Source of the DNA: a virus
DNA: 64,000 bases
Strand: one strand, 5' to 3'
IMG/VR virus record: IMGVR_UViG_3300027844_002282
Below, in pieces: positions 3,704 to 63,738 of the stretch; the first letter of the stretch is position 1, and every line of letters begins with the position of its first letter. A program made the position numbers and the translations under genes. The notes beneath the pieces were generated by a model. That model had not been told where the DNA came from. It worked only from the letters and a program-made list of their open reading frames with translations, and ran no database searches.

Positions 3704-8482
<4,779 letters not shown>

Positions 8483-8490
8483 TCAAGTTA

Positions 8491-10773
8491 TTACTTTTTG
8501 TCAGGTATACTATTTTTACGCTTTTCCTCTAGCTTTTTCCTTTGTTCGGTGATCCAGCGCTCTCTTTTTCCTATCTCGTTCATGATCCTGGTCATCACAC
8601 CACCGATGTTACTTTCGATTTCTTCTTCTCCAAATCTAATTATTACCCAACCTTTATTATTTAATTTCTGATCTCTCTTCTTATCTCGCTCTATATTCTC
8701 TGGAGAGCCGTGGAATGTAGTTCCATCACACTCTACTCCAAGCTTAATATCTGGGAACGCAACGTCAATCATAACCGGTCTTCCACCAGTATGCACTTCG
8801 TATGAAGGGGATACGTTATATGTTATCTTCCCACTTCTCTGATGGTTCTCAATAGCTTTGATAACCGCCCTCTCAATAGAAGTAAGCATTATTCTTCCCA
8901 TTCTATCTCTCATGAACCCATCACCACCAACCCCGCTGGGGGATTGAACGTTATGCTCTCTCTTTGATTGTTCTTTATCAACCTTTTCTCTATCTCTATC
9001 AAGCTTTTCTCTGGTTTTGTCAGTTAATATCTTTCCGCCGTATTGTCCAGGGTCCGCCTGTGAGGTTACTTTAATCGATTTAGACGACGCTAAGCCCATT
9101 GGGGCGGCGTCGCCCGGGTCTCCCATGCCTCCGCCCATTTCTCCGCCCATTAAGTCACCACCGCCTGGTTCTCCCATGCCTCCGCCAAGGTCTAAGCCAC
9201 CGCCACCGCCTCCCAGGCCGCCACCCATGTCCATTCCACCCATGCCGCCCTCTTCACCAGCAGCCTGTCCCGGTGGTTGTTCAGCCATCGCTTCAATTCT
9301 TTCCCATCTCATCTGCTCGAATTCAGTGTCTGGATCGATATCGAACTCTGTCAATACTCTTGTGGCACTAATAAGTCCCTTGTCGAACAACTGTAAAATC
9401 ATTTGTCTTTCTTGCTGTCTGTCTCTAAGATTTAAGCTTCCCCATTTTATCTTCGGATAAATCCATTCGTCTTCGCCCCATTCATTGGTCTTTCTAAAGC
9501 CCTTCATCTTAGAAATCGGCAAGTAGATCTCTTCTTCGATCCATCTTTTTAACTCAAGTCTCCACGACTCAAGTCTCTTAATCATTATTTCCGCACCCAT
9601 AGCTGCGCTTGAGTATGTCGGACCTTCACCAGTAATCAACTGCTTGTTAAGACCGAAACCGTCCATAATTTCCTGATTGATGAACTCGTACTCTCCCTGA
9701 ATAGGAAGAACTTGACCATTTGCTCCAACCCAATCGAGTTCGAATGCATGATGAGTAACGATAACCATGTTAGGATCGTTAGATGCCGCCTGTAGCTGCC
9801 CTTGTACGGCAGTAATGTCCGCTTCGCTCGCTGGACGTTCCTCAGTACCGACTTTGACGACCTTGATAGGAAGGATCAGTCTTTCTGCCACGATCCATTG
9901 GGCGGTCATGATCTTCGTCTTATAACTCAAGATCGGGAAAAGTCTTCTGGTCATCGAGATCCCGTATCTTCTATAGCCAGACTCGCCAAATTTCAAATGA
10001 CTTACATTTCTGCTATCTAATGGAATTGGTCTTCCTTGAGCAATAAAATCTTTCACTTCTTTTGACAGCTTATCTGTACCTGGGCCACTCTTAATAACAA
10101 GATCTCGCAATTCATCATCTGGAACGTATGTGATAACGTCTTCTGGTGAAATCGAGTTTGAGAAAACCTCAACAAAGTCGGGATTTAGGATTAGGAGCCT
10201 CTTGAACGTTCCACCTTCATGCTCGCAGATTTCATCTCCAATCCTACCGCTTCCACCGCAATGGTCGCATTCTATTTCTTTGAACGGAAAACAATCTCCC
10301 ATCAAATGGACTTCATGACTAATGAGTCGAGCCCACTTGTCAATGTTTAGTTTCTTGTTAACCTCTTCATCAAAGAAGTGTTTAATGTATCTATCTGAAC
10401 ATTCTGTCTCGAAAGTCGTAATAGGGAACTTGCTGTAAAAATCAATAGCGGTCGCGACACGGGGCTCGTTCTCGTACCAATAGCGACACCACATATATAT
10501 TTCTCGGCGGCGTGATGGGATCTGCCAGTTGATTGGCGTATATACAGGAGAAAAGAACTGTGGCTGACCATAAGAGATTCCAGCTGTCGTCTGCTTTGTT
10601 TTCCTATTGTAACTACCAAAGTTAGAATGGGAAACCGTTGCGGCAGAATAATCCCTTGGTGTCTGTGTTGCTTGTGGCGCTTGCCCGAACGTTGTATTCG
10701 GGCTCGCCTCTAATCGTTCACCCCTCTTAAGACTGTTGAAGTGCTTTTCGAGATCGGCTACTACCATTTCCAT
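8491..10773 (-). CDS. Portal protein with Gly/Met linker and C-terminal DUF559/Vsr-like endonuclease domain
   Basis: WCRYWYENEPRVATAIDFY, LNPDFV, HLKFGES..YGIS, P.KVVKVG portal-like segments; C-terminus IDVAFPDIKLGVECDG..FH...DKKRDQKL..KGWVIIRF. Confidence 0.8.
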   Translation of the reverse strand: MEMVVADLEKHFNSLKRGERLEASPNTTFGQAPQATQTPRDYSAATVSHSNFGSYNRKTKQTTAGISYGQPQFFSPVYTPINWQIPSRRREIYMWCRYWYENEPRVATAIDFYSKFPITTFETECSDRYIKHFFDEEVNKKLNIDKWARLISHEVHLMGDCFPFKEIECDHCGGSGRIGDEICEHEGGTFKRLLILNPDFVEVFSNSISPEDVITYVPDDELRDLVIKSGPGTDKLSKEVKDFIAQGRPIPLDSRNVSHLKFGESGYRRYGISMTRRLFPILSYKTKIMTAQWIVAERLILPIKVVKVGTEERPASEADITAVQGQLQAASNDPNMVIVTHHAFELDWVGANGQVLPIQGEYEFINQEIMDGFGLNKQLITGEGPTYSSAAMGAEIMIKRLESWRLELKRWIEEEIYLPISKMKGFRKTNEWGEDEWIYPKIKWGSLNLRDRQQERQMILQLFDKGLISATRVLTEFDIDPDTEFEQMRWERIEAMAEQPPGQAAGEEGGMGGMDMGGGLGGGGGGLDLGGGMGEPGGGDLMGGEMGGGMGDPGDAAPMGLASSKSIKVTSQADPGQYGGKILTDKTREKLDRDREKVDKEQSKREHNVQSPSGVGGDGFMRDRMGRIMLTSIERAVIKAIENHQRSGKITYNVSPSYEVHTGGRPVMIDVAFPDIKLGVECDGTTFHGSPENIERDKKRDQKLNNKGWVIIRFGEEEIESNIGGVMTRIMNEIGKRERWITEQRKKLEEKRKNSIPDKK

Positions 10774-16419: not shown

Positions 16420-17218
16420 TTGCCCCCTCCATTATATAAACCATGTCATCTACGGCCACCAAAAGCTGGTCTGCCCCAACGACATCAAGAGATCGTATCT
16501 TCTCGCCTTCCCACTGTCCTGCGATCTTCACATCTGTCCCGTCATATTCATAGAGATTACACCTGTTCTCCGGGGCAAAGTAAAGCTTATCATCAAATGA
16601 TACTGCACAGGAAAACGAGACATCAAAGTTTTCGTTCTTTTCAAGAGTAGCCAAGGATGTTGTGACCTTTGAAAATGTTGAAATAGAGAAAAAATCATCC
16701 CCATCCTTTAGCATGGACCAGCCACTCGAATTCAAAACTGGAATAGACTCTATCCCCTCGACAAAAACATATAAAGAACCCCCATGAGAAACCATTGCTT
16801 TAATCCCCCCACCATATGCGTCATACTCCATTCTCCAATCAGTTCCGTCAAATGATAATATTAGCCCGCTCGGAGAAGTCCCAGCATAAAGTTTGTTATC
16901 ATGAACTTCGAATGCTGTTACTTTGTAATCTCCAGTGGTTACATAATGGAATCTATTTCCAGTGTTGAAATTGTGCATCATTATCCTACCATTTGGAGAG
17001 GTTCCAACGAATAAGGCGTTTCCATAGTCGGCAATCGCCGTGGCATACATGTCTCCCACCTTGTAAAACTCCAAATTAGATGTCCCGTCAAGGGTTCTAT
17101 AAACAATACCCTCTGGACCGGTCCCTACATATAGGTATCTACCAAAAACATGGGTTGATTGAATAACTCTGTTATCAACTGATTTATACTTGGCTATGAT
17201 TGTTCTTGTTGTAATCAT
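16412..17218 (-). CDS. Beta-propeller repeat protein
   Basis: Repeated LYVGTGPEG / LFVGTSPNG / LYAGTSPSG blades. Confidence 0.7.
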   Translation of the reverse strand: MITTRTIIAKYKSVDNRVIQSTHVFGRYLYVGTGPEGIVYRTLDGTSNLEFYKVGDMYATAIADYGNALFVGTSPNGRIMMHNFNTGNRFHYVTTGDYKVTAFEVHDNKLYAGTSPSGLILSFDGTDWRMEYDAYGGGIKAMVSHGGSLYVFVEGIESIPVLNSSGWSMLKDGDDFFSISTFSKVTTSLATLEKNENFDVSFSCAVSFDDKLYFAPENRCNLYEYDGTDVKIAGQWEGEKIRSLDVVGADQLLVAVDDMVYIMEGAND

Positions 17219-18978
17219 TATATTTTCGCGGCCTCAAATGTTTTATCTTGATAATCAGTTGGGTCTCTATCCGAGCCCGAACCATTAAAATCAAAGTAAG
17301 AGGAGTTCTCTCCTCCTCCAGAAAGATCCACATTTCTCTTATCAACCTTATACGCACCATGTCTCAAGTCTGTTACAGTAATATTATCAACTGAAAAGTC
17401 AGCGGTGAAGCCCCCTACAATACTCGCGCTAACACCTTCGTTTCTTGCGGTCGCAGAAAACGTCCCGTTAAAATAAACGCCACTATCATAGTCGAAGCTC
17501 AAAATATTTATTCCAGGATTACTAACTCTATTTACCATCGCTCTAAGATTAGTATTGTCTATTGCCACAAAACTATCCTGGTTATACCCTCTTCTTACGT
17601 AGATTCGATCTATATTCACCATTATATTAGAGGAGAAATTAGGCTCGAAGGCTTTATTGAATGAGTACACTCTTCCATCAGAATACGCCGTTACTATATC
17701 CCTTGTGTTTACATTTAACCCAAACCCAACGAACCCAGATGATAAAGTTAGGGCCTTAATAACAGCATTGCCTCTAACCACATATATCTTTTGATCATAT
17801 GGAGAGTGGACATAAACGTCTCCATTGATGGCGACCTCAAGATACCCAGACCTACTTATTGGTTTGTTTACCAATAAGTTTCCGTCTGAGTCATAATGTC
17901 TAATCCTATTATAGCCAACATCCGAAACCCAGCAAGATCCATCGAGTCCCAATTTTACAAATCCCGGATTGCTGAATCCAGAAGAAATGGTAAAGACAGT
18001 ATTCATATTTTCATCAAGCTTCACCAGACTTGTCTTATTAATCACCCAGACGCCATCACAGGTTGAATCGTCATAATATAAAGACTTTGGGTAGTCCAGA
18101 CCATCCTTTTGTATAAGGGCTATCGATTTTGGTTCTTCAAATAAATCTGACTTGGCTGATATTTTTGATCTGGTAACATCAAACTTCATAACCCGACCAG
18201 CCTTGTATCCGTCCCCAAAATATGAAGAGAAGTATATGTCACCTGTTATGTCACAAATCTCAAGACATGATTCCGAATCGGCGAAGCATTTTATTTCCTC
18301 AACAAAAGTGGGGCCTTTATATAACCCATTGCCAAAAAACAAGCTCCCATTTTTCCCAACCAAAACCGCTTCATCAAGACTAAATCTAAAGTGGGTTAGG
18401 CTGGACACCGAATCGTTTTTTCCAACAGGAACATTTGAGTAGGTAACTATATCGTCGATATTACACTGTAGGTTAAAATCTACGGTCTTCGAGTCAAGTG
18501 AGAAGAAATCCAAGTCAGATATTGTCTCTGAATATATGTTAAAATTACCAGACGCTGTACATTCATCGTTAACAAATATAGCCATAGTTGCGCCTGACCC
18601 AAGAATTAAACCTGAACTATCCCAATAAAACTCAACGATGAATGACGTGTCTGAAGATATTGACGTTTTAGTATCGACTATTACAAACTTTCCATTTCGA
18701 GTCCATAATGTAAGAATTATTCCTTCGTCTGACAATGAAGCGTAAACCCCTGGGAAGTCGATAAATTGCGCCTTCTGGTTAGTTCCGAACAAAATATAAT
18801 CTGTAAGATACTTCTCACCATCGCATAAAGCATACACCCCATTTGATATGGCGTTTGGAAGAGTTAATTGTAATAGGACCCCTCCAGACGAAAACGTGAA
18901 CAACTCTGATGCGTCATCATTATAAATGAACGTGTCAGAGTACTCAGTCTTTTTAATACTGTTTTTATTTGTTTCCAT
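17218..18978 (-). CDS. Putative tail/baseplate protein with NHL-like propeller
   Basis: 586 aa; FSNPGFV..DGSCWVSDVGYNRIRHYDSDG is an NHL-like repeat. Confidence 0.6.
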   Translation of the reverse strand: METNKNSIKKTEYSDTFIYNDDASELFTFSSGGVLLQLTLPNAISNGVYALCDGEKYLTDYILFGTNQKAQFIDFPGVYASLSDEGIILTLWTRNGKFVIVDTKTSISSDTSFIVEFYWDSSGLILGSGATMAIFVNDECTASGNFNIYSETISDLDFFSLDSKTVDFNLQCNIDDIVTYSNVPVGKNDSVSSLTHFRFSLDEAVLVGKNGSLFFGNGLYKGPTFVEEIKCFADSESCLEICDITGDIYFSSYFGDGYKAGRVMKFDVTRSKISAKSDLFEEPKSIALIQKDGLDYPKSLYYDDSTCDGVWVINKTSLVKLDENMNTVFTISSGFSNPGFVKLGLDGSCWVSDVGYNRIRHYDSDGNLLVNKPISRSGYLEVAINGDVYVHSPYDQKIYVVRGNAVIKALTLSSGFVGFGLNVNTRDIVTAYSDGRVYSFNKAFEPNFSSNIMVNIDRIYVRRGYNQDSFVAIDNTNLRAMVNRVSNPGINILSFDYDSGVYFNGTFSATARNEGVSASIVGGFTADFSVDNITVTDLRHGAYKVDKRNVDLSGGGENSSYFDFNGSGSDRDPTDYQDKTFEAAKI

Positions 18979-18985
18979 TATTTAC

Positions 18986-21253
18986 CTAACTTGAACTTGA
19001 ACTACTTGAGCAACTACTTGAACATGATGTCCATGTTCCAGAGTTCAAAAATTTACCGGACCCGTTATTATACAAAGATCTGGCCATTGCTGCACAGGCT
19101 CGCTCATTTGACAGAGTGGGCTCTTTCCAAACTGCCACCTCATCCATTGTGACATCAAAATTTGACCAATTCCCATGTAAAAGGAATGGGCACGAACTCT
19201 CACTTATAGTCCCATCATAAGATTTGCTCTCCTTCAAAACGCCATCTATATAAAGATGTATATTACTACCGTCTGCCACACCAAAGATATGATGAAAAAC
19301 GTCTTCGGTAACCTCATGATTACCCATTGATGAATAAGTCAAATCTGATTGTCTAATCAGCCAACTAACTCTAAAATGCTGTGAAGAACTCCCATTAAAT
19401 GTAAAGTGGTAACTGCTAAGTTTACCCTCTGAAGATCCACCAGAACCAGAATTGTAATGTTGTTTTACCCACATTGAAATAGCAACCTTATTGGTGGCGG
19501 ATAAATCAATGGAGTCCGGTGCCATCAGACTCGCCGCAGCTCTACCAGTTGGCCCTGGCCCGCGACGGCCTGCGCTTTCACTAAACAAGGATGCGTTGCC
19601 CTCTTTGCCGGAAACTGCGTCAATGGTCTCATTGTCTATTAAATCATTCGACCCTACCGAGTCGAACCTCCTACCAGTCGTTTCCTCCATATCCCAATAC
19701 GCCACTAATTTTGAATCCTGGTCTGTAATGTTGGTACAAAAATTCGTTGAGCTACTCGAACTCGCGCTACTTACAGAGCTTGTGCTGGTACTAACATAGC
19801 TTGAATATGAAGGACTTGATGGGCTAAGCCAACTCGAACACGAACAGCTACTACTGCTGCTTGAGGAGCTTGAGCAAGAACAGCTTGAACTACTCAACCA
19901 GCTTGAGCAACTACTCGAACTACTCGCTACTGTACCATGCTCGAATCTCCAAAATATATGTACTTTTTCATCCCCATCATAGTTTTCACCAGACGTGAAT
20001 GTTATCTTAATATCCTTTGAATCATCAAACCCAAAATTTCCAGGTGGGTGAATACTTCCATTTTCATATAGATCAAACTTACTTCTATCAAGAGTCTCGG
20101 CGGTGTTGGCATAATCAATCAGACCGTCAAAAAATGGATTCAACTTTGTAAAATCATTCAATAATCCATCGTCAAAATATTCTGATAATACCGGGCTTGT
20201 TCCGACAATCACATGTGCATCATACCTGTCTGGGAAAGTTCCCGCCGATATCTCAATAAATGATGACGTGTTGAAAGATCTACCTGGAGTCTTTATAAAA
20301 TCAGACGACTGTAGAACTTTTGCTATCCAAGTCGTGTTCCCACCATCCCAATAAGCCCTGTAAACGGCGAACAGGGCCGTTTTTGTATCTATTGATGGTG
20401 AAATAAAAACCATTTTATTTCCGTACAAGGAGCCGAGTGGTCCGTCCTCACCAAACCCTACAAAAGACGATCCGTCAAAATAAGTGAACCCAGTCGGAGA
20501 ATCTCCAGAATCTCTGTACATCAATGGTGTAACCAAACTTCCAGTATAATCGGAAACGTCTCCAGATGATCCTATATAAATCTCATAATGGATATTAGAA
20601 GACGGTGGCCAGGTGTTAAAGTAATCGCTTATTTCCGGTAGAAGATCTACGGATAATGGTGACGTTCTGTTTTCTCCAGTATTAGAAAAGGTGCTTGCAT
20701 ACAGGTTTATTTTTTTGCCAGAATAACTAGAATACTCGTTAGACAGTGTTATATCACCGCCAGATACTGTGCAGCCCCTCGATCTATGGAATAAGTACAA
20801 GTCCTGAGTGAAATCAATTGTCAAATCTGTTGCTATAAATTTAGACTTTAATAGCCTTGTAGTATGCCATGATGTATACCCCTCTCCAGGCAGGGAGTAT
20901 ATCTTATCATATTCTATTGCCCAGCCATCTATATCTATAGATTCAAACTTATACAAAACATCGGCGGTCAACTCTCCATCCAGAACAAAATCCTGATTAT
21001 ATGTGAGAACATACTCAATATGGGCATAAGAATACCCAATTGGGACATCTGGCAAATCTGTTTCCAGAATTAATATGGTACTGTCTGAATAATAAGGTGG
21101 CGTAATACTAGATTTCGCCCATGACGAAACATCAATATATTTTCTTGGGTTCGATCTATAAATGGTCCCCTCACTATTCAATGTCAAGTCCACATCGCCA
21201 GAATCCACCCCTACAATATGTCCAAAATGCTTGTTTAGTTTTACTTTCTTCAT
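18986..21253 (-). CDS. LamG/ConA-like domain tail-type protein with Ser/Cys tracts
   Basis: LVAYWDMEE...ISMWVK...FHHIFGV..IHLYIDG..MDEVAVW; two poly-Ser/Cys tracts; start placed at MKKVKL after a GGGG RBS. Confidence 0.75.
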   Translation of the reverse strand: MKKVKLNKHFGHIVGVDSGDVDLTLNSEGTIYRSNPRKYIDVSSWAKSSITPPYYSDSTILILETDLPDVPIGYSYAHIEYVLTYNQDFVLDGELTADVLYKFESIDIDGWAIEYDKIYSLPGEGYTSWHTTRLLKSKFIATDLTIDFTQDLYLFHRSRGCTVSGGDITLSNEYSSYSGKKINLYASTFSNTGENRTSPLSVDLLPEISDYFNTWPPSSNIHYEIYIGSSGDVSDYTGSLVTPLMYRDSGDSPTGFTYFDGSSFVGFGEDGPLGSLYGNKMVFISPSIDTKTALFAVYRAYWDGGNTTWIAKVLQSSDFIKTPGRSFNTSSFIEISAGTFPDRYDAHVIVGTSPVLSEYFDDGLLNDFTKLNPFFDGLIDYANTAETLDRSKFDLYENGSIHPPGNFGFDDSKDIKITFTSGENYDGDEKVHIFWRFEHGTVASSSSSCSSWLSSSSCSCSSSSSSSSSCSCSSWLSPSSPSYSSYVSTSTSSVSSASSSSSTNFCTNITDQDSKLVAYWDMEETTGRRFDSVGSNDLIDNETIDAVSGKEGNASLFSESAGRRGPGPTGRAAASLMAPDSIDLSATNKVAISMWVKQHYNSGSGGSSEGKLSSYHFTFNGSSSQHFRVSWLIRQSDLTYSSMGNHEVTEDVFHHIFGVADGSNIHLYIDGVLKESKSYDGTISESSCPFLLHGNWSNFDVTMDEVAVWKEPTLSNERACAAMARSLYNNGSGKFLNSGTWTSCSSSCSSSSSSS

Positions 21254-21261
21254 TATTACCC

Positions 21262-23130
21262 CTAACTCGAACTGCTCGAACTGCTTTGGGTCCAAGTTCC
21301 GCCATCATAAAATGTTCCATGATCGCCATTATAAATATAGTCAGCCATACTGTCTGCTTCGGCAACACTACTAAGTGGAATGTCTCCCCAAAAAGCAAAT
21401 TCATCAAGGCCCGAATCGTCATCTACACTTATCCATACCTCAGTGTCATTGGAAAAGTCCTGTATTGTGCTGGAAAACGACTCTATACCCGACTGAACCC
21501 CATCGACATATATTATGATCCTATTTATACCAGAATCAGCAATACATAAAATGTGATGCCAATTTGCAAGTGACATCGCCCCAGACGTTATCAATCTATC
21601 ATCAGCCTGAAAAGTAAGTTTTGCACTTCCAGTGTCTAAAAAGTGAGAAACTTCGTACTCATTTGTCTTTCTTATAATTATTTTCCCAGGAGATACATTT
21701 AGTGGGTCTGGGTAATACCAGAAACTCATTATAACAGAACTCGCATGGACCCCGCTTATTCCAGTCACCAAACCAAACGTCACATCCGCCTCTGGTGTCG
21801 TTGCGTTAGTCTTCTTTCCAGGATCTGTTTTTACTGTTGATGCGTCTTTTGTTATCAAATGATTATATGGTAGCACATCATCGGAATGAATCGACCCAGT
21901 AGTCTCATCAAAGTCCCAATGAGCCAGCATATACGAATTGTAAGCATTAATGTCCGAAGTCCAAGAAGAGGAACATGAGCAAGAACTACTACTGCACGAT
22001 GAGGAACACGATGAGGAGCACGATGAGGATGATGAGTTATTGCAAGATGACGAACTACATGATGACGAACTTGAAGAACTGCTTGACACAATCGCGTCAT
22101 CTAAGTTCATCGTGATCGCTGTGTCAAAATTTTTCCATTGATTTTCAGTCTTGCTGAAGTATGTCATGTATATATCTTCGCCCTTTTGGGCGGAGGCGTA
22201 AACAACACCTCTGTTGTCAACGCTTATTTGAGGATATATCAAGTCAGAAACAGCACCAAATGGTGTTGACGATGCAAAGAACCTCCACTCATCATTGTCT
22301 TTACCAAACCCTACAACCGGGACAAATATTGAGTTTACAGGGTCATAGCTTACAGATATCGCATATACATAGCTGTCGTAAATAAAAAATGAGTTATCAT
22401 CTGTCGGGTTCTCTAATGAGCATAATGAAGGGAAGATAGATCTTTCGGTACAGAACGACCTGAAAGTAGAATAAGAGCCAGAGGCCAGACATAGAATTGC
22501 TTCTGGACTCCCTGCATAGTGTTGTATCGTTTCCCCAAAATCTTCTTCTATAATTTCATACGGGTATTCTATATCTCTTTTTACAACAAATAGTATAACA
22601 TCATTCACCATCGACTTGGCATCAACAAGGATATAGTCTGTCAATTCTGCTTTCTTGGTTACCGACGTTGTTGTAACTTCATAAATAACAACGTTGCCTC
22701 CAACTTGAGAGGCCATGAAAATATCATCGGTGTCAACCTTCACTAACTTAGAGAATGATGGAAAGATTCCATTTACACATGCGTCACTATCGATAGCTTT
22801 CCATGTGGTATCAAGATATGTGTAATAGCCACAGTCAAATTGTCCATCAAAAACTCTGTTTGGATTGTTTCCTGTGCCCAAAACTGAGACGTTATCTGAG
22901 GCGAGTTCTACGAGGGACAGGTTCTCCCCCACATAGTCTCTTGGAAGACGGTCTGTCGAGGCTGGGAAAGATACAGTGGTGTCCAACACCTCATCAGTTC
23001 TATAGACTGAAATGTTACCGTCTTTATCTCTAAACAAATAATGGACATAATCATCAGAGAACCTCTTAAAGTCTCTGATGTTTGTTTTTATTGGTGTTAG
23101 GAAGTTTCTTCTGTCATTCTGTGGTTTCAT
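21262..23130 (-). CDS. LamG/ConA-like domain tail-type protein with Ser/Cys tracts
   Basis: LAHWDFDE...MSFWYY...WHHILC...IYVDG...LDEFAFW; Ser/Cys tract precedes the domain; poly-Ser C-terminus. Confidence 0.75.
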   Translation of the reverse strand: MKPQNDRRNFLTPIKTNIRDFKRFSDDYVHYLFRDKDGNISVYRTDEVLDTTVSFPASTDRLPRDYVGENLSLVELASDNVSVLGTGNNPNRVFDGQFDCGYYTYLDTTWKAIDSDACVNGIFPSFSKLVKVDTDDIFMASQVGGNVVIYEVTTTSVTKKAELTDYILVDAKSMVNDVILFVVKRDIEYPYEIIEEDFGETIQHYAGSPEAILCLASGSYSTFRSFCTERSIFPSLCSLENPTDDNSFFIYDSYVYAISVSYDPVNSIFVPVVGFGKDNDEWRFFASSTPFGAVSDLIYPQISVDNRGVVYASAQKGEDIYMTYFSKTENQWKNFDTAITMNLDDAIVSSSSSSSSSCSSSSCNNSSSSSCSSSCSSSCSSSSCSCSSSWTSDINAYNSYMLAHWDFDETTGSIHSDDVLPYNHLITKDASTVKTDPGKKTNATTPEADVTFGLVTGISGVHASSVIMSFWYYPDPLNVSPGKIIIRKTNEYEVSHFLDTGSAKLTFQADDRLITSGAMSLANWHHILCIADSGINRIIIYVDGVQSGIESFSSTIQDFSNDTEVWISVDDDSGLDEFAFWGDIPLSSVAEADSMADYIYNGDHGTFYDGGTWTQSSSSSSS

Positions 23131-23570
23131 TATGAGTGATCAAGGCTTACCTGATACGTCACAGACCCCGCTTCTGCGGCGTCCATGGACATTCTTGAGT
23201 TCATGAATATATACTTTGACACATTGTCAGCCCTTGTCCCTATCGTTACTGGTTGGTCAAGACCCGCGAAGAATCTCGACAGTGTGCTTCTTGAGACAAA
23301 ATTATCGTCAAGTTCTATTCCGAAATTTCCATTCCCCGCTGTCCCGTCAGAAGTGATATCTACAGGGCTGTCATTTACTGTGATTTGTGGGGAGGCTGTT
23401 ATTTGAAGAGTCACATTAGAAAGAAACGATACGTCTGGGACATACAGATCAAAAACTCTGATCGGGCTGAATTCGCCTATGTTGACATTTCCAAATGACA
23501 AAGAGGTGACTGTTCCCATTAACTTTCCTGTCGATGGGTTATACTCTCTCCATACTGCTGCTATAGCCAT
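23130..23570 (-). CDS. Putative structural protein
   Basis: Start MAIAAV after GGAGGGAG; first gene after a late-promoter motif. Confidence 0.65.
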   Translation of the reverse strand: MAIAAVWREYNPSTGKLMGTVTSLSFGNVNIGEFSPIRVFDLYVPDVSFLSNVTLQITASPQITVNDSPVDITSDGTAGNGNFGIELDDNFVSRSTLSRFFAGLDQPVTIGTRADNVSKYIFMNSRMSMDAAEAGSVTYQVSLDHS

Positions 23571-23595
23571 TTTTCTCCCTCCAAATATAGTCCAA

Positions 23596-23623
23596 ATTCT
23601 TTCATAACACTTCAAACTCCTTT
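23596..23623 (-). promoter_or_regulatory. Putative late promoter AAAGG-N18-AGAAT
   Basis: Best match to the recurrent motif. Confidence 0.6.
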
Positions 23624-23639
23624 AATTTATAATTGTACA

Positions 23640-24566
23640 TTAACTAAGGCCGTTGGACATCCAACGACTAAAACATTCGTTATTCAAAATGTCCTCACAA
23701 CTACTGTCTATCATTAATTGATGCCTCATTATCGCCCCAAGATAGTTCTTTACCACTTCCCTATCTGGGGTGAAGTCGTCAAACCCTGACAATTTACCTT
23801 CGTAAGTAGCCCCTGAGCCCGTATATGCCGATCTGCCGATGGTCGCCACAGGAATACCACTAAATAGCGCCTCAGTTGCCACTGTTGAATTAATTGTAAT
23901 AACCTTTGAGCATCTTGATATAGATCTATATACAGATTTTTCCAAATCTAACTCCCATCTATCGCCAAATATTTTAACCCCCTCTTCTCTAACTTCTTCC
24001 CAGTCGGATCGGTGCCTTGGGTGTGGTCTAACAATAATTTCCTTGTCTGGGAACTGTTTCTTTACTCTTGACAACAATGATAAGATACTACTCCCTTTAC
24101 CGTAATCGTCATAACAATATTTTACAGGAGCGTCATTCTCTCTTTGTAAAACTACAAGAATCGGACCTTCCGGGTCGTATTCTTGAAAATAATCAACCCA
24201 ACCAAACCTTTCTTCCGCAATTTCATAGAACTTATCTATCTCAAATGACGAGGCGGATTGTAAATACTCCTTATCTGTACATATTGTAGAGTCCGAAAAC
24301 CACCCGTTCGTATCTAAGAATATTCCACTCCCCTGATTGAATAATGCGTTCTCGATAAACAAAAAGTTTTTGCCGTGTTTGTCGTACCATTCTTTTGGAA
24401 CTTTCAAACCCCAGGTAATAATATTGTCATATTCTTTTATAAGATTTATATACTCATTTTTAACGCAAGAAAATCGGACAGATATTTCTTTATCAGTTAA
24501 AACATGTTCTATTTGATGTTTTAACTGATCGTGGTTTTCTGGGAAAAATAAACATGCTACTCTCAT
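23640..24566 (-). CDS. Capsule-synthesis (KpsS/KpsC-like) glycosyltransferase
   Basis: FIENALF...LDTNG, LVVLQRENDA, IIVRPHP, VITINSTVATEAL..G.PV.T.G.S.Y. Confidence 0.75.
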   Translation of the reverse strand: MRVACLFFPENHDQLKHQIEHVLTDKEISVRFSCVKNEYINLIKEYDNIITWGLKVPKEWYDKHGKNFLFIENALFNQGSGIFLDTNGWFSDSTICTDKEYLQSASSFEIDKFYEIAEERFGWVDYFQEYDPEGPILVVLQRENDAPVKYCYDDYGKGSSILSLLSRVKKQFPDKEIIVRPHPRHRSDWEEVREEGVKIFGDRWELDLEKSVYRSISRCSKVITINSTVATEALFSGIPVATIGRSAYTGSGATYEGKLSGFDDFTPDREVVKNYLGAIMRHQLMIDSSCEDILNNECFSRWMSNGLS

Positions 24567-24592
24567 GATTTAATCTCTTATGATGACGATAA

Positions 24593-26215
24593 TTATATAC
24601 TGCTACTACTTGAACAGCTACTTGAACAGCTACTACTGCTGCTTGAGAAACTCATTGATGATGACGAGAGCGAATAGCTCGACGAAGAACTAATACTTTC
24701 TGATGAACAACTACTTGACACCCAACTTGAACAGCTGCTTGACGAACTGCTTGAATTTGTCCAACAAAGGGAACTAACTTGACCGCCAGACTGATTCAAT
24801 GTAAAGTCGCACCCTGTGATATCAATAATCCATGCTGTGCCAGCTAATGGTGCTTGAACGCAAACTTCAACAGGACAAGTCGCCTCAACAATATAGGTGT
24901 TGTAATTCTGATAAGTAGATATTGATCCCGTATCCAATATACTTCCGGTATTATCTGTAACGGTCAATCTGTCTGGAATCGTATACGTCTTAAATTTGAT
25001 AGTCATTGTTCCGCACGATTCTCCAGGTGAACATTGACCAATGGCCTGGACGGAGCTTATAGACTCGCTCGATTTGCTAAACGAACTACTGCTTGATTCC
25101 CAACTTGAACATGAACTCGAACAACTTGAGCTACTTGAGCTACTTGACGAGCTACAAGAGTTACTCGATGAGCTACTTGATATGCAAACGGTACAGGCGG
25201 CATGTGTTGATGGAGGTGTCGGAACAGTGTCATTGCCCTGCCTTTTTATGTAAAAGCAATAGGCGTCGGGTGGGGGACAACACGATAAAAAATTCCACGT
25301 GGTAGTTACTGGAGCACCTGTAAGTTTTGCACTCTTTATCCTAACAATGGATGTAGCATCAATATCTTCAATAGCATTATAGGTAACCTCGAATCCTGCT
25401 CTGGCAAAAGACTCTGTTGGAAGCGGTGGCGTTCCTTCGCCAGAATATTTCTTTCTAAATGTGACAGAGAAACTGTCAAAATAAACGCCTGTGAAAAAAT
25501 TGTACTTAGTCACATCTTTATTCAACATTGTTAGTGGGTCTCTTACCCATGAAGCTGGAGCGGTTCCAGAATACAGCCCGGTATTATTGAATTCTGTCAA
25601 TGTAAGAACAGATCCGCCAGACTCTGGAGCTTCGAACTGGGCTTTTGCCTCCCAATAAAATTCTCCTACACCACTTAGTGATGAGCTTTCCCAACTTGAA
25701 CAGCTTGAAGAGCAACTACATAATGAGCTTTCCCAGCTGGAACAGCTTGAGGAACAGCTTGAGGAACAACTACTACTTGAGGAACTACATGAACAACTAC
25801 AACTTGATGAGCTACAACTTGAGGAAAGACTTGATGAGCTAAAGCTACCAGATCTTGATGATGAAGAACAAGAACAAGAACAGCTTGAACTACTATTCGA
25901 CGAGCTACTGGAAGAACAGCTGCTGGAAGAACTTGAACTGCTTATTTGATCACCAAGAATAGCGGGGAAAATATTCTCCTTATATCTTGATCCGGTTGCC
26001 ATAACTACCGGGCCATTGATCATCACGTTTTTCAACTCTCCCTTTTCTGGATTATTGAAAGCGTCTACCTCATCACAAGAAGAATAGAATGACACATCAT
26101 CAATGGGGTTTTTATTATTCCATTGAAAATCGTCTGGGTAATTTCCCTCCTGATTCACCGAAGAAGCATTGCTTCCCGGTAGCGCTAAGTCTGCGTACCA
26201 ATTTGAAAGTGCCAT
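24593..26215 (-). CDS. Ser/Cys-rich putative virion appendage protein
   Basis: 540 aa with three long S/C tracts separating small globular domains. Confidence 0.7.
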   Translation of the reverse strand: MALSNWYADLALPGSNASSVNQEGNYPDDFQWNNKNPIDDVSFYSSCDEVDAFNNPEKGELKNVMINGPVVMATGSRYKENIFPAILGDQISSSSSSSSCSSSSSSNSSSSCSCSCSSSSRSGSFSSSSLSSSCSSSSCSCSCSSSSSSCSSSCSSSCSSWESSLCSCSSSCSSWESSSLSGVGEFYWEAKAQFEAPESGGSVLTLTEFNNTGLYSGTAPASWVRDPLTMLNKDVTKYNFFTGVYFDSFSVTFRKKYSGEGTPPLPTESFARAGFEVTYNAIEDIDATSIVRIKSAKLTGAPVTTTWNFLSCCPPPDAYCFYIKRQGNDTVPTPPSTHAACTVCISSSSSSNSCSSSSSSSSSSCSSSCSSWESSSSSFSKSSESISSVQAIGQCSPGESCGTMTIKFKTYTIPDRLTVTDNTGSILDTGSISTYQNYNTYIVEATCPVEVCVQAPLAGTAWIIDITGCDFTLNQSGGQVSSLCWTNSSSSSSSCSSWVSSSCSSESISSSSSYSLSSSSMSFSSSSSSCSSSCSSSSSI

Positions 26216-26258
26216 GTTTACTCATCTCAAAACTTTTAGTAGAAATTCACAAGTCTTT

Positions 26259-26432
26259 TTACTTCTTGCCTCTTTCTCTCTTGTGTTTCGCCTCGTTTTC
26301 ACTTAAATACTCAAGGATTGCCTGCCCTTCCGTCATACCCTTATCTTTCTTGCTCTTTAGATTTTCCCAATACTCTGTCATCATATTTGAGCTATCTCCG
26401 GCGTCTTGGGCTTCTTTTTTAATATCTTCCAT
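26259..26432 (-). CDS. Small protein, 57 aa (MEDIKKEAQDAG...)
   Basis: Below the ORF-track cutoff; AAGGAG RBS; fills the gap; carries KKEAQ. Confidence 0.65.
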   Translation of the reverse strand: MEDIKKEAQDAGDSSNMMTEYWENLKSKKDKGMTEGQAILEYLSENEAKHKRERGKK

Positions 26433-26441
26433 TTTAACTCC

Positions 26442-27368
26442 TTATGAAATTAGATCTGACCAATCATCAAGAAAGGTCTTCTTCTTTGGTGGTTTTTCCT
26501 GCACCGGAACATTTTGTACCGGAACATCCTGTACTTGAGTATCCGGTGGCGGGGTCTCTTGAACGGGCGGTTCTCTTCTTTTTGTATCAATTACATCTAT
26601 TCGATTAGGGTCAAACATTTCAATTTGATCACGCGCTTGTTCAAGCGTCTCTCTCGCCCGCTGCTCATGATCTTTTCCCTCTTCAATAGAGGTTAAATAA
26701 TTTCTAATGTCATGAGGGTTAACTGGGCCGTCCTTTGTTATAAATTGATACCCAACGATATCATCCAACTTAAATGTTCTTGGTTGACCGCCTCTAGTTA
26801 AATCAACAACAGTTATATTGTCGCCGTCCCTCTCAAATATTTTACCGCTTGGAAGCTTGGCGGTTCCACTTGTTGCTAATTGATGATCTAACATGCCTCT
26901 GTGGCCACCGGTGTACATATAGGATATCTCCATGTTCAACCCGTTCTTTATTGCGAAATCAAGGGCGTCAACAAAGTTCTGTGTTATTCTAACGTTAAAC
27001 TCTTCGGCTCCGGCTGTTTTTATACTGTCTCCAAAACTATGACCAACCACAACATTGTTCTTAGCAAACCACCCACGATTAACTTCAAGTGCGTACCTAC
27101 ATTTTGTCGATGACTTTACGGGCCTTAGAGATAATGGTATCAAGGGTTTAATATCTAACACTTTGAAATCGCTACTCAAAAAGGCTATGTCCAAGGGAAT
27201 ATAGGTGTTAGACATCCAGAAACTAAGGTGCCTATCTGACGCAAAGCAAAATAGCATCCCGCGATTTTCTCCGAGATGCTTCTTGTACATCAGCCCCTGC
27301 TCTCTTGTGTAGGGGTCGTTTGCGACATCTACCATTAAATTAATTGTCTTTTTTTCACTCGCAGCCAC
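26442..27368 (-). CDS. DUF192 domain protein fused to a WYL-like domain
   Basis: REQGLMY..GMLF..FWMSNTYIPLDIAF..YALEVNRG (DUF192); AIK...EISY...PRTFKLDDI (WYL-like). Confidence 0.75.
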   Translation of the reverse strand: MAASEKKTINLMVDVANDPYTREQGLMYKKHLGENRGMLFCFASDRHLSFWMSNTYIPLDIAFLSSDFKVLDIKPLIPLSLRPVKSSTKCRYALEVNRGWFAKNNVVVGHSFGDSIKTAGAEEFNVRITQNFVDALDFAIKNGLNMEISYMYTGGHRGMLDHQLATSGTAKLPSGKIFERDGDNITVVDLTRGGQPRTFKLDDIVGYQFITKDGPVNPHDIRNYLTSIEEGKDHEQRARETLEQARDQIEMFDPNRIDVIDTKRREPPVQETPPPDTQVQDVPVQNVPVQEKPPKKKTFLDDWSDLIS

Positions 27369-32916: not shown

Positions 32917-33002
32917 ATTCTTTATAAGAGCGTTTATAGTCTTTGGCGCGAACCTGCTCCAGACTATCCTTATTTTACACTCAAGGACTATGTAAATCCT
33001 TT
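32917..33002 (-). promoter_or_regulatory. Two tandem putative late promoters
   Basis: AAAGA-N18-AGAAT (32917-32944) and AAAGG-N18-TGTAA (32975-33002). Confidence 0.5.
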
Positions 33003-34752
33003 ATGTAAAGTGTATATTAGCAACAACTCCCTGCGGGAGAGGATTTTTAAGAACTCTACCGATAGCCATCCAGGCAGCACCAGCGACACAATCAAGAAGA
33101 TCATCCGTGGTTATATCAGCCTGTGGGTCAGGAAAAATCTGGACCCCCCTCTGTGTTGGTCTATACTTAATATTAAGCATTTCACCAACAACCAAATCGC
33201 TTCCATAAAGAACCAATTCTCTCCTGTCCATGAGATCGAATAGGTTTTTGTAGTAATTAGCCTTTGGACCTCTTCCAAATGGTAACTGCTTGGCGTAAAA
33301 CCCCTTATTACTCAGGTAGCTTATGGAATGAACACTATTCCACGTGTCATATGTTACTGATATAGGCTTAAATATTCTTGCTATTTCAAGAATTTCATCA
33401 TCCAACTTTACAATATCAAGACCGACACCTGGCTGTGGTTTCCAGACCGCGTGGAAGGCTAATACTATCTTAAACCTCTTTTCCCCAGACGATGTGACAT
33501 ATCTCACTCTTTTAACAACAGCACAAGCGTAAGTGTCGTGTTTTGAGGCCGGGTCAATATGCATAAAGTATTCACAGCCACGGTCTCTTTGGTCCTCCAT
33601 ACTAAGATTAGGGTCAACTGCACCCATAACCTTGTCTTCAGGGAAGTACTTATGTACAGAGCCCATTGTAGACCACATTGCGCCAAACTCAATATTGAAA
33701 GCCTCTGGGTCTTTACTTCTCAACATTGTCAAATAGTCGCCATCATATGGGAATTCATCATTAATATCCCATGTTGCAAGGTGAAACCCAAGAATTCTGT
33801 CAAATTGCTTATCAATACTCTGCCCCTGCTTATGTATTGAATGGAAAATTCCAGACGGAATACCAGTCGTGGATAACTCCACCAACTTTCCTCCACCATA
33901 TGTGTCAAACTTTGCCATGGACGGAATCAAAGCGTTATAGAAGTCTCTTCCTGAAACAACTGGGTGTTCAGTGTAGTACTGTAGCTCATCAAACAGGATA
34001 CAAATAGCTGAATAACCACGCAAACTGTCCGGGTTACTATGTCCGCATATCAAAACAATAGATCCCTCAACAGCGATATTCATATCTGGATCGTCTTTTT
34101 TTCTAAGATCGATATCTGTATACAATCTTATCTCAGATGACGAGTCTCCCTTTCCCTGAACTCTCCCCTTAAAAAATGGAGCATTTCTTATCCTCGCCTT
34201 AACTTGTGAAAACAATCTTCCACCCTGTTTCTGGGAGTTTGCCACATTCAATATTGCTATCTCTTCATCGTATGGGATGTTATAATGCTTATATGGATCG
34301 CCAAGCTTGATTAACTTGTACGACTCGTAAGCGCAAATAACTGATGCGAGAAGGGTCTTGCTCGCACGTCTACCGCAGGCGAGATTTAGTTCCATAAAAT
34401 TGAAATTGTGAGGTTCTCCGGGATTGACCCCATCAACTTTTCTTTTTAACTTTTCAATGGCCGAATCTTGGCTCTTGGCGTATAGCCAGTTCCATTCTTC
34501 ATCCGTAAACTCTGTTTTTTCATTACCAGGAGTTCCGTAATAGAATGATTTGAGAATAACTCTCTGACTTAAAAATAAAACAAGGTTGTTTTTAGGTAGG
34601 GCCATCATGTCGTCCCTTTCACAAAAAGATATAACATCTATTAGACCTTCTTCAGTCTCGCCTTCTTCTATAACAAGATTATTCTTTTTTCTTATTTCGG
34701 TGACAGCGTTAGATAAGAAATTAACGTTGTTCCCTTTATTTTTCTTTTCCAT
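33001..34752 (-). CDS. terL: Terminase large subunit
   Basis: Walker A ACGRRASKT, LRG...ILFDE Walker B, STT motif III, nuclease HIDPA...D and TDDLLD. Confidence 0.9.
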   Translation of the reverse strand: MEKKNKGNNVNFLSNAVTEIRKKNNLVIEEGETEEGLIDVISFCERDDMMALPKNNLVLFLSQRVILKSFYYGTPGNEKTEFTDEEWNWLYAKSQDSAIEKLKRKVDGVNPGEPHNFNFMELNLACGRRASKTLLASVICAYESYKLIKLGDPYKHYNIPYDEEIAILNVANSQKQGGRLFSQVKARIRNAPFFKGRVQGKGDSSSEIRLYTDIDLRKKDDPDMNIAVEGSIVLICGHSNPDSLRGYSAICILFDELQYYTEHPVVSGRDFYNALIPSMAKFDTYGGGKLVELSTTGIPSGIFHSIHKQGQSIDKQFDRILGFHLATWDINDEFPYDGDYLTMLRSKDPEAFNIEFGAMWSTMGSVHKYFPEDKVMGAVDPNLSMEDQRDRGCEYFMHIDPASKHDTYACAVVKRVRYVTSSGEKRFKIVLAFHAVWKPQPGVGLDIVKLDDEILEIARIFKPISVTYDTWNSVHSISYLSNKGFYAKQLPFGRGPKANYYKNLFDLMDRRELVLYGSDLVVGEMLNIKYRPTQRGVQIFPDPQADITTDDLLDCVAGAAWMAIGRVLKNPLPQGVVANIHFT

Positions 34753-36134: not shown

Positions 36135-36899
36135 TTAGATATGAGCTTCTACTATGGGTACTTCAATGACTTTTTCATGGAAGAATGAGTGCCCCCAGAG
36201 GCCATCCTCTCCCATACAATCCCCGTGGTCTGAACATAGAATAATATCTGTGTTTTTCATCTTCGGAGATTGAAGTAATCTTTCGATCATTTTATCAAGA
36301 TACTCTATACATCTGATCTGAGCAGATCGACACCGTTTATCACCCCAATTAATTGGCTCATCATTTTCTCGTATCCTATAACTGTGATGAGTTTCTCCAA
36401 AATTCATAAATAAGAAAAACTTCTTATCTGTAGGTAATTCTTCAAGAACATAGTCAATCTGTTTCTTTGCAACCGTGAACTCTCCAAAGAACCCGAACTT
36501 CTTAAAATCGTCAATTGCCGAAATGTGCGCTGGTTTATTTATATTGAACCATCCAACAGCACCAGTTCCAACAGTATCATACCCCTTCATATTGAATCCA
36601 TGAACAATATTTCTCCCGTCAAGTTGAACATGAGCATCTCCGGGGGACTCTGGGTTATTCAATCTCCACCACTGGCGACCATCTGTCTTCCTACCCGATC
36701 TCGCACAAGTATCGAAAGATCCACTACGTGTATGGGGTAATTTTCCAATGAAGAATGAGGTATGAGCCGGTAGAGTATATGTCCCATGTGTAAATGCCTT
36801 TTCAAATGGGAACGATTTTATTGTCGGCAAGTTAGCGTCTCTGAACGTGTCCCATCTTAAACTGTCAAAAACTATTAATGCTTGATTTCTCATTTCCAA
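36135..36899 (-). CDS. Sulfatase / alkaline-phosphatase superfamily enzyme
   Basis: FDSLRWD, TYTLPAHTSFF (Thr at the nucleophile position), ETH, CSDHGD, WGH, VP. Confidence 0.75.
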   Translation of the reverse strand: MEMRNQALIVFDSLRWDTFRDANLPTIKSFPFEKAFTHGTYTLPAHTSFFIGKLPHTRSGSFDTCARSGRKTDGRQWWRLNNPESPGDAHVQLDGRNIVHGFNMKGYDTVGTGAVGWFNINKPAHISAIDDFKKFGFFGEFTVAKKQIDYVLEELPTDKKFFLFMNFGETHHSYRIRENDEPINWGDKRCRSAQIRCIEYLDKMIERLLQSPKMKNTDIILCSDHGDCMGEDGLWGHSFFHEKVIEVPIVEAHI

Positions 36900-38125
36900 T
36901 TTATCTCGTGAATATCTCCATTAAAACCATGTGGCGTAACTCCAACAGGTAGATACCTCTTTAAAATCTGAATATCTTCATTTCCAAACTTCAAACCGCT
37001 CAAATCTACGGGTCTCTTCCTTACTATTACGCTTATATTATATCCATACTTTTTTACCCTCGCTAATGAACAGTCGAATCCAGCCAGGATGAGATGCATA
37101 AGGAGTAACCCAGCGTTCCACAAAGATACGTGTCCGCCAACGATCTCGTGTTTTAATGGAGGTACTGTTATGGCTAAGACCCCATCGTCGGTAAGGTCTC
37201 TGTGTATCTTCTTCAAAAATTCATTAGGACTTAATTGGTGTTCGAGAACATGAGAACACCATATACAATCGAACTTCTTGTCGAATTCATGATCACTATA
37301 GTCCCCAACTATATCGGCGTGTTTTCCATGGACATAATCTATAGAGGTAACGTCCTTTCTACACGACTTAAAAGCCGCCTTATGGTTCCCATGTCTACCG
37401 CATCCGATATCAAGTACTGATTTGAACTCGAAGTCGTTGACGAGCTTTGAAATGCATTCGTGAGAATGCATTTCAGTAAAAACAATCGGCTTTCTCTTCG
37501 TAATAATAGCTGCACTGTCAATATCTATTTTCATATCAAGAAACTTTGATATTGTATTCCATTCTTCTTTAGGGAAAGATGTGACATCTTCAAAATTAAC
37601 ATTTAGACAATCAATACCCTGATTGCTTACGTGTTCAACCATTTTATCTCTAAACCCGTTCCATTTTTCTATCCTACCCTTATAGTGCTTCGGGCTCAAC
37701 TTGTTCATCTTAGCCGAAGAAGCGGCTTGGTTGTCAATGTTTCTATGGAGAACGATGACTCTTACATCTACACCTGAATCTTTTAACTCTTTCAAGAATG
37801 GAAGGTCGTATGTTCTATATGATTTAGTCGCTACGACATCTTTGTTTTTATACTGGTTATTTAGGAATTTCTTATAGTCCTTAATATTCTCTTCACCCCT
37901 CTCTATAACACTCTCGATTGGTGGCGGGTTTTCGCAAACAAATAATTTCTTGTATATCTTCTTTATCTTATTTATGTGGGGCTCACTCTCAAAATATCCG
38001 CCTGGATTGAATTTGTCTTCAGTCTTCGTGTCCTTCACGAACGCTCCTGATTTCCTCAAAACCTTCATCATGTATGAAGACCCAATCCTCCCCATCCCAT
38101 ATGTTAATACAATCAATTTCTTCAT
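36890..38125 (-). CDS. Sulfotransferase-like domain fused to class I SAM methyltransferase
   Basis: GMGRIGSS, NPGGYFE, LHRN...SS, VNFED; then VLDIGCG, FDCIWCSHVLEH, G.L.ITVP. Confidence 0.75.
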   Translation of the reverse strand: MKKLIVLTYGMGRIGSSYMMKVLRKSGAFVKDTKTEDKFNPGGYFESEPHINKIKKIYKKLFVCENPPPIESVIERGEENIKDYKKFLNNQYKNKDVVATKSYRTYDLPFLKELKDSGVDVRVIVLHRNIDNQAASSAKMNKLSPKHYKGRIEKWNGFRDKMVEHVSNQGIDCLNVNFEDVTSFPKEEWNTISKFLDMKIDIDSAAIITKRKPIVFTEMHSHECISKLVNDFEFKSVLDIGCGRHGNHKAAFKSCRKDVTSIDYVHGKHADIVGDYSDHEFDKKFDCIWCSHVLEHQLSPNEFLKKIHRDLTDDGVLAITVPPLKHEIVGGHVSLWNAGLLLMHLILAGFDCSLARVKKYGYNISVIVRKRPVDLSGLKFGNEDIQILKRYLPVGVTPHGFNGDIHEINWK

Positions 38126-40325: not shown

Positions 40326-40337
40326 AATAATTAGTCC

Positions 40338-63294: not shown

Positions 63295-63738
63295 ATGATA
63301 TCAACAGAAAATCCGAAAGGAACAATCGTAATCACAAGCGGATATTTTGACCCTCTACATGTAGGACATATAGAGTATCTTGAGTTAGCAAAACACTGGG
63401 GCGACTATTTAATAGCGATAGTCAACAACAACAATCAAGCTCTCCTTAAAAGCGGCGGATTTTTAATGGATCAGTTCGATAGGTTGAAAATTGTTGGCTC
63501 ATTGGGAATAGTTGATTCCGCACACCTTTCCATTGATAAGGGGCAATCAGTGAAGGACACAGTCGCTTACTTGCGACAGCAGTACCCAGACAACAAAATG
63601 ATCTTCGCCAATGGCGGAGACAGGCCCTCTGAGGGGCTCGAAGAGACCCAAGTGTGTGCTGATGGCGGAATCGAGTTAATAGACGGCCTCGGTGATAAGA
63701 TCAGATCTTCATCAGATTTTAGGAATTATTCTGTGTAG
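63295..63738 (+). CDS. Cytidylyltransferase-family nucleotidyltransferase (TagD/RfaE-like)
   Basis: SGYFDPLHVGHIEYL, FANGGDR, KIRSSS. Confidence 0.85.
   Translation: MISTENPKGTIVITSGYFDPLHVGHIEYLELAKHWGDYLIAIVNNNNQALLKSGGFLMDQFDRLKIVGSLGIVDSAHLSIDKGQSVKDTVAYLRQQYPDNKMIFANGGDRPSEGLEETQVCADGGIELIDGLGDKIRSSSDFRNYSV

Follow-up and report, generated by a model that had tools for sequence, protein, structure and literature searches.

Cytoplasmic O-glycosylation of Ser-rich substrates occurs in several bacterial systems, in which SRRP adhesins are modified by GtfA/GtfB, Sdr proteins by SdgA/SdgB, and autotransporters by the BAHT heptosyltransferases TibC/AAH. Freeman et al. reportedly proved virion glycosylation by mass spectrometry in 2023 for the mycobacteriophages Che8, Corndog, and Myrna, and Howard et al. 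are said to have noted in 2004 that polyserine linkers use mixed Ser codons. Such linkers, found in the marine Cellvibrionaceae Saccharophagus degradans, Teredinibacter turnerae, and Cellvibrio japonicus, are ~80% Ser and span 39-44 residues (PMC2386152, PMC2699552), while glycans at the C-termini of mycobacteriophage capsid and tail-tube proteins are on record (cited in PMC12619734). The locus considered here shares features with each of these systems. It lies within 64,000 nucleotides of the IMG/VR record IMGVR_UViG_3300027844_002282 (hereafter the window), the source of which is an uncultured giant phage. Three neighboring genes, termed A, B, and C, encode proteins with long serine tracts punctuated by cysteine, and a predicted glycosyltransferase (GT) is encoded among them. 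Judging from sequence comparison, these Ser/Cys tracts are very probably conserved connectors and tails under protein-level selection.

The translations contain 12 Ser/Cys tracts with a total of 237 residues, of which 192 are Ser (81%), 35 are Cys (15%), and 10 are others. In a regular-expression scan of the 35 minus-strand open reading frames (ORFs), [SC] runs of at least five residues are confined to A, B, and C, leaving 32 genes without any. Gene C (P0005, 540 amino acids (aa), 24593-26215, minus strand, as are all features of the three genes) is 31% Ser and 6% Cys and has three folded segments split by Ser/Cys tracts, followed by a Ser/Cys tail. Its tracts occupy residues 92-179 (25679-25942, two CSSWES units), 346-378 (25082-25180, one CSSWES unit), and, together with the C-terminal tail, 488-540 (24596-24754, one CSSWVS unit). 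The N-terminus of C (26171-26215) reads MALSNWYADL. Gene B (P0002, 622 aa, 21262-23130) encodes a β-propeller, a tract at residues 349-389 (21964-22086) followed by a CSSSWTS unit, a LamG-like domain, and a poly-Ser tail at residues 616-622 (21265-21285). Gene A (P0001, 18986-21253) encodes a conserved 440-aa N-module, a tract, a LamG domain, and a Ser/Cys tail. The ORF of A spans 18986-21295, with the ATG at 21253 being the probable true start of a 755-aa protein; numbered on the full ORF, the tract covers residues 458-516 (19748-19924, two CSSWLS units) and the tail residues 757-769 (18989-19027). Both the A and B tails were located by translation and the same scan.

A preliminary description of this DNA had reported Ser tracts punctuated by Cys in three adjacent genes, a recurring SCSSW-type unit, and two genes ending in W-T-x-poly-Ser, and the translations agree on all three counts. 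All seven tract Trp residues fall within C-S-S(-S)-W-[ELTV]-S, encoded as TGY-TCA-AGY-TGG, and A and B share the ending G-T-W-T-x followed by poly-Ser, positioned after paralogous LamG domains. The spacing between successive Cys residues in the tracts is mostly 2 or 4.

The tracts draw on every one of the six Ser codons, with AGY accounting for 49% compared with 30% in the other genes. Tandem DNA units are short and imperfect (9-27 nt, 2-4 copies), and the longer repeats (at least 35 nt) are no more than 86% identical, with no long exact repeat; the tracts thus appear old and diversified instead of freshly generated by slippage. Among the non-Ser residues of the purest tracts, Cys accounts for 18/32 and Trp for 5/32, as opposed to the 9.8% and 1.3% expected from the one-step codon neighbors of the Ser codons in use. 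A combined share of ~56% would be expected for Thr, Pro, Gly, and Arg, yet none of the four occurs at these positions. Duplicated units inflate the formal significance of the Cys/Trp enrichment, and relatives show the same Cys bias. Selection has thus maintained the Cys residues and the C-S-S-W unit within the tracts. The preliminary description had taken mixed codon usage to argue for protein-level selection over slippage; this reading holds, since the mixed codons are accompanied by tract positions kept in relatives of 30-50% identity and by the Cys/Trp enrichment. Because homologous domains lie on both sides of the tracts within one ORF, the tracts are translated in frame. A slippage artefact or a wrong frame is ruled out, as the repeats are imperfect and the flanking homologous domains are in frame. 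No tract-length hypervariability was detected within the population, the members of the A cluster differing by one substitution outside the tract.

The function of the tracts emerges from their relatives. A full HMMER search recovered 11 other library representatives of the B-propeller family, and the propeller is retained in every one. At the same junction (residues ~345-365), nine have a run of Ser or Ser/Cys; seven of the nine continue beyond it into unrelated C-modules, and two end within the run. The C-modules are small Cys-rich domains, a repeat propeller, or a module of ~90 aa. One B relative carries a further tract N-terminally, where it follows BNR-type repeats, and the tract of another (P0023) is devoid of Cys. 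Both relatives of the A N-module likewise have a Ser/Cys tract at the same junction, followed by a different C-module. A third module, related to the small protein P0003 encoded between C and B, occurs in two loci (L007 and L008) as an N-terminal fusion to a Ser/Cys tract and other modules. The same kinds of C-module recur on different N-modules: LamG is found on both A and B, and the ~90-aa module is common to B-family proteins and P0003-like fusions (39% identity, E 5e-16). Since tracts persist at the same junctions while the C-modules are exchanged, they can be regarded as conserved connectors at an exchange point. The comparison identifies the tract junction as the point where modules were swapped, with the tract acting as a flexible spacer; the conserved N-modules that exchange C-terminal binding modules at the Ser/Cys run belong to at least three families. 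Six metagenome loci from JGI share the order tract protein, variable slot, P0003-like gene, B, A, and a 586-aa protein. Scans of IMG/VR for relatives of A, B, and the B family found none.

The LamG domain of A (residues 590-726, 19118-19528) matches PF13385 in Pfam (7.6e-15), and the C-terminal half of B is paralogous to the LamG half of A (28% identity, E 2e-14). The first 345 residues of B model as a β-propeller (AlphaFold2, pLDDT 80.9, pTM 0.84), with the propeller itself at about residues 17-336 (22123-23082). It resembles Kelch, sialidase, and Photorhabdus lectin propellers (Foldseek, TM up to 0.57) as well as gp427 of phage G, with TM values of up to 0.59 over the whole set. In locus L011, the tract protein encoded ahead of the P0003-like gene is weakly homologous to residues 211-316 of C. 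The ESM Atlas gave no usable match for either the N-domain of A or the middle domain of C, and the P0003 family has no match in the PDB or Pfam and, in a word search, no longer fused forms. The preliminary description had termed the three products LamG tail-type proteins. The LamG part of this assignment is upheld by A and its paralogue B, whereas the tail part is not: A, B, and C have no tail match among the PHROGs, searches revealed no homology to tail, baseplate, or fiber proteins, and the position of the genes is between terminase and portal. A conserved N-terminus combined with a variable C-terminus is an architecture typical of receptor-binding proteins. A, B, and C are probably modular proteins exposed on the virion.

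In the order of transcription, the five consecutive genes are C, P0004, P0003, B, and A. They are closely packed or overlapping and form a co-directional, late-type block, in which the P0003 stop shares TAATG with the B start. P0004 (308 aa, 23640-24566, minus strand) matches PF05159 (9.5e-14), confirming the KpsS-like transferase that had been placed between the tract genes; P0003 (23130-23570, minus strand) is a conserved 146-aa module protein, 62-68% identical in relatives. Searched against the PDB, the P0004 family profile finds KpsC (6mgd, 9e-10) and WbbB (5fa0, 2.3e-9). Residues Q141 and D145 (Q-x3-D) and H182 and P183 (H-P) are invariant in the P0004 family and align to the KpsC/WbbB motifs, in which the Asp is reportedly catalytic and the His CMP-binding. 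The model of P0004 (pLDDT 66) has a GT-B-like fold of two Rossmann domains, and its best Foldseek match is again KpsC (6mgd, 2.5e-7). In VIA-align, KpsC scores a Z of 10.0 (rmsd 4.9, 204 residues aligned), which is tied with many GT-B enzymes (Z 9.7-11.7); these neighbors include GtfA and SdgB (Z 9.7-9.8), which O-glycosylate proteins. P0004 is not an equivalog of KpsS, given its score of 21 bits with the NCBIfam KpsS model compared to a cut-off of 600 bits. On the basis of sequence and model, P0004 is predicted to be a soluble GT-B enzyme nearest to the β-Kdo transferases KpsC and WbbB. The eight enzymes, P0004 included, are devoid of transmembrane segments, and the 64-kb window revealed no exporter. 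With soluble enzymes and no exporter, the acceptor should be intracellular.

P0004 occupies the slot between the C-like and P0003-like genes, the contents of which vary. Locus L010 has a radical SAM gene and a Capsule_synth gene, the product of the latter being 30% identical to P0004, while L008 has a double GT2, a radical-SAM-like gene, and a methyltransferase. All occupied slots (window, L008, and L010) thus hold sugar-type enzymes, although not all of them are orthologous. The radical SAM genes (L008 4906-5778 and L010 84-1160) give twitch/SPASM-like and viperin-like matches, all far below the family cut-offs; they adjoin glycosyltransferases in the L008/L010 slot, and none was seen in the window. 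Within IMG/VR, P0004 has its closest relative at L001 2898-4292, which encodes a 465-aa fusion with a DUF6171-like N-terminal part; this gene is followed by a DXD-type glycosyltransferase (PF04488).

A six-gene glycan cassette (36135-41842, minus strand), identified by Pfam and NCBIfam family matches, lies ~10 kb upstream of the tract genes in the same block, where the preliminary description had located it. It encodes an STM4013-like hydrolase, a methyltransferase, a GT2-methyltransferase fusion, a KpsS-like paralogue, and two GT2 enzymes. The "sulfatase-like" gene at 36135-36899 (minus strand) belongs with the STM4013/SEN3800-family hydrolases (1.6e-32, under the 250-bit cut-off), and its product also weakly matches phosphoethanolamine transferases. 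Two chemical proposals of the preliminary description are not supported. Sulfated glycans would depend on a sulfotransferase match of the cassette methyltransferase gene that is below threshold (20.8 bits vs 27), and SunS-type S-glycosylation of Cys finds no enzyme of sufficient score, the best match to the SunS family (TIGR04195) being the GT2 at 41051-41842 with 15.3 bits compared to a cut-off of 350 bits (E 0.0067). The other GT2, at 40338-41051, has a weak match to GtrB-like PHROGs. A related cassette is present on a 99-kb IMG/VR contig (L005 9366-13688), with the order GT2, KpsS-like, methyltransferase, methyltransferase, GT2, and STM4013-like hydrolase. For four of the L005 genes, identity to window positions 36135-40325 is 32-42% and synteny is preserved, so the cassette is a mobile unit common to otherwise unrelated phage contigs. 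Pfam scans of 39 window ORFs (29 of the 35 on the minus strand plus 10 located past 44 kb) recovered glycosyltransferases of the GT2 and PF05159 types alone, with no GtfA/GtfB pair, SecA2/SecY2, or Asp proteins.

The Ser/Cys tracts are best read as polyserine-type connectors and free C-terminal tails of modular proteins with carbohydrate-binding-type folds (β-propeller, LamG), and these carrier proteins belong to a clade of uncultured giant phages. It is further hypothesized that the serine runs receive O-linked sugars in the cytoplasm, no later than during assembly, from soluble glycosyltransferases of the same operon-like cluster. In the window, this enzyme would be the β-Kdo-transferase-like P0004, possibly aided by the upstream cassette. 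The product would be a hydrophilic, protease-resistant glycan brush, and outside the cell the cysteines would staple the chains by disulfides or bound metal. This explanation as a whole, from connectors through cytoplasmic O-glycosylation to Cys stapling, has nearly an even chance of being correct; O-glycosylation of the tract serines by the nested enzymes, taken by itself, is proposed a little more tentatively. Of the glycosylated fibers envisaged in the preliminary description, the nesting of enzymes among tract genes is borne out, while the connector role, which that description had not considered, is the main function that can be demonstrated and glycosylation remains a suggestion. The free C-terminal Ser tails speak for the latter in that they need an explanation other than tethering. 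It is also favored by the KpsC/WbbB-like sequence of P0004, the close packing of the genes, the sugar-type enzymes in every occupied slot, the predicted intracellular acceptor, and the precedent of the mycobacteriophage C-termini.

Several points weigh against glycosylation. It is so far a plausible deduction, and the placement of A, B, and C on the virion is read from gene position and fold type. To our knowledge, β-Kdo transferases use lipid or glycan acceptors and not proteins. The co-occurrence of tracts and glycosyltransferases sought in the preliminary description is only partial: of six related loci, three have sugar-type enzymes in the slot, and it is empty in the other three (L006, L007, and L011, on contigs of 1-6 kb). 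KpsS-like relatives and the cassette also occur without tracts. There is no tract within 10 kb of the nearest viral relative of P0004 (L001, 38% identity), at four other viral loci, or at two distant bacterial loci with KpsS-like relatives. The 99-kb contig with the related cassette (L005/G001) has no (WSN)x12 run in a search that included a positive control and that misses tracts of fewer than 12 residues. Lastly, the function of the Cellvibrionaceae linkers is stated to be unknown (PMC2699552), and they have no known dedicated glycosyltransferase.

These same points lend themselves to a simpler explanation, in which the polyserine of the linkers and tails carries no modification and provides flexible, soluble spacers, the spacers are stiffened or bundled through their cysteines by inter-chain disulfides or metal-thiolate clusters (CxC, Cx3C), and the neighboring glycosyltransferases are unrelated cargo. 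The polyserine linkers of S. degradans and T. turnerae join carbohydrate-binding modules and are ~80% Ser (PMC2386152, PMC2699552); the tracts described here are 81% Ser, measure 13-88 residues, and lie between lectin-type folds. The Cys spacing of mostly 2 or 4 suits the proposed clusters, and both the slots without enzyme in half of the related loci and the tract-free occurrences of the KpsS-like relatives and the cassette are as expected for cargo. However, every occupied slot (three loci) holds sugar-type enzymes, and these come from different families. Free C-terminal Ser tails tether nothing, and the proposed role of the cysteines is compatible with glycosylation of the serines. Unmodified linkers are accordingly possible but, on balance, doubtful.

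A different acceptor has also been considered, namely that the glycosyltransferases modify phage DNA or a lipid or glycan of the host envelope, in restriction evasion or superinfection exclusion, and that a cargo-insertion hot spot brought them next to the tracts by chance. The best-known roles of phage glycosyltransferases are in DNA glucosylation and serotype conversion (PMC12619734), the acceptors of KpsC, KpsS, and WbbB are lipids or glycans, the GT2 at 40338-41051 is weakly GtrB-like, and the cassette travels as a unit independent of the tracts. Nevertheless, the 64-kb window (of a genome of >150 kb) has no hydroxymethylase or other base-modification gene, no flippase, and no exporter; all of the enzymes are soluble; and the slot is located inside a co-directional, partly overlapping late-type block. 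DNA or the envelope is thus an unlikely target. That the tracts are instead substrates of another chemistry (radical SAM thioether or other cross-links, Cys S-glycosylation, or Ser phosphorylation for metal binding) is very improbable: the slots of L008 and L010 do contain radical SAM genes, and Cys and the CSSW unit are under selection, but the window yielded no enzyme of the radical SAM, kinase, or lanthipeptide type, the radical SAM matches of the relatives fall well short of every family cut-off, the SunS score is 15 bits vs 350, and some relatives (P0023) have tracts without Cys.

A more ambitious form of the O-glycosylation hypothesis can be envisaged. The Ser/Cys runs would be a universal, enzyme-addressable connector that is decorated in the cytoplasm by nested, exchangeable enzymes (β-Kdo-type in the window; GT2, radical SAM, and methyltransferase in relatives), yielding a brush resembling the lipopolysaccharide core (Kdo/heptose) on virion lectin modules, with CSSW as the recognition site and Cys as the cross-link points. 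This extension is speculative and quite unlikely as a whole. If it were true, P0004 would be the first ulosonic-acid transferase of the GT99/GT107 kind to act on a protein.

In the wider window, the minus strand carries all genes from 3 to 43346, and the tract genes sit between the large terminase (33001-34752) and a portal (8491-10773, minus strand) with 34% identity to gp14 of Bacillus phage G. A megablast search of positions 18000-27000 against 50,697 phage records gave no match, so this region is without a close DNA relative in that set, and tblastn searches of the same records with P0004, P0003, the 586-aa protein, and a 320-aa protein were equally negative. The 586-aa protein (17218-18978, minus strand) is encoded downstream of A and is syntenic in L009 and L010. 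Residues 650-750 of the portal form an additional C-terminal part with a match to the HNH-endonuclease phrog_559 (9.3e-6). It is adjoined by a 1592-aa protein (3704-8482, minus strand) and a gene (3-3683, minus strand) that encodes more than 1227 aa, continues past the window edge, and opens with a prohead-protease domain; residues 38-234 of its product match the head-maturation protease phrog_18299 (4.9e-15), making this a very large protease fusion. The 1592-aa protein has ~13 Glu-Pro repeats at 4200-4247, followed by a Pro/Ala/Val-rich stretch, and the Glu-Pro run is a second type of low-complexity spacer in this phage. Farther away are a 279-aa protein with a PAS sensor domain (46623-47462, minus strand; PF13426, 3.6e-13) and, at the window edge, a cytidylyltransferase-like gene (63295-63738, plus strand; PF01467, 1.4e-8).

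The connector result stands with or without glycosylation. The junction is a useful marker with which to annotate and dissect the otherwise opaque proteins of huge phages, and shuffling at the junction offers a testable model of how host-binding repertoires diversify. Should the tracts prove to be glycosylated, giant phages of marine and fresh waters would be making the sugars with which their exposed lectin-type modules are coated. Virion glycosylation would then extend beyond mycobacteriophages, and a β-Kdo-type family would be added to the known protein modifiers. No literature linking polyserine tracts, phages, and glycosyltransferases was found.

Among known systems, the polyserine linkers resemble the phage tracts in being ~80% Ser, tens of residues long, and encoded by mixed Ser codons. 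The A and B tracts are also alike in lying between folded modules of the carbohydrate-binding type, whereas the C-terminal tails do not fit this scheme. The phage tracts further differ by their selected Cys, the CSSW unit, and the nested glycosyltransferase genes; the free tails, the selected Cys, and the CSSW unit, as read from the translations, take them beyond the polyserine-linker class.

The glycosylated mycobacteriophages have phage glycosyltransferase genes that adjoin structural genes; the locus may share this placement, in that its glycosyltransferases lie in the block between terminase and portal, beside genes for putative virion proteins. The mycobacteriophage targets are capsid and tail-tube subunits and no β-Kdo-type enzyme is involved; the candidates described here are modular lectin-fold proteins of presumed virion location, accompanied by the β-Kdo-transferase-like P0004. 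KpsC and KpsS (CAZy GT107) and WbbB (GT99) (PDB 6mgd, 6mgc, 8fuw, 5fa0, and 8csb) have in common with P0004 the GT-B-like fold, the sequence of the C-terminal domain, and the Q-x3-D and H-P motifs. P0004 differs in being phage-encoded, 308 aa long, and 16-20% identical to them. They extend lipid-linked or O-antigen glycans, while P0004 is a predicted transferase. A parallel in logic exists with the SRRP, Sdr, and autotransporter systems, in which a soluble GT-B enzyme is encoded beside the Ser-rich substrate that it modifies in the cytoplasm, as is proposed for P0004; the phage locus departs from these by having no GT4/GT9 sequence membership, accessory Sec, SD repeats, or autotransporter, and by pairing its tracts with an enzyme of the KpsC/WbbB type.

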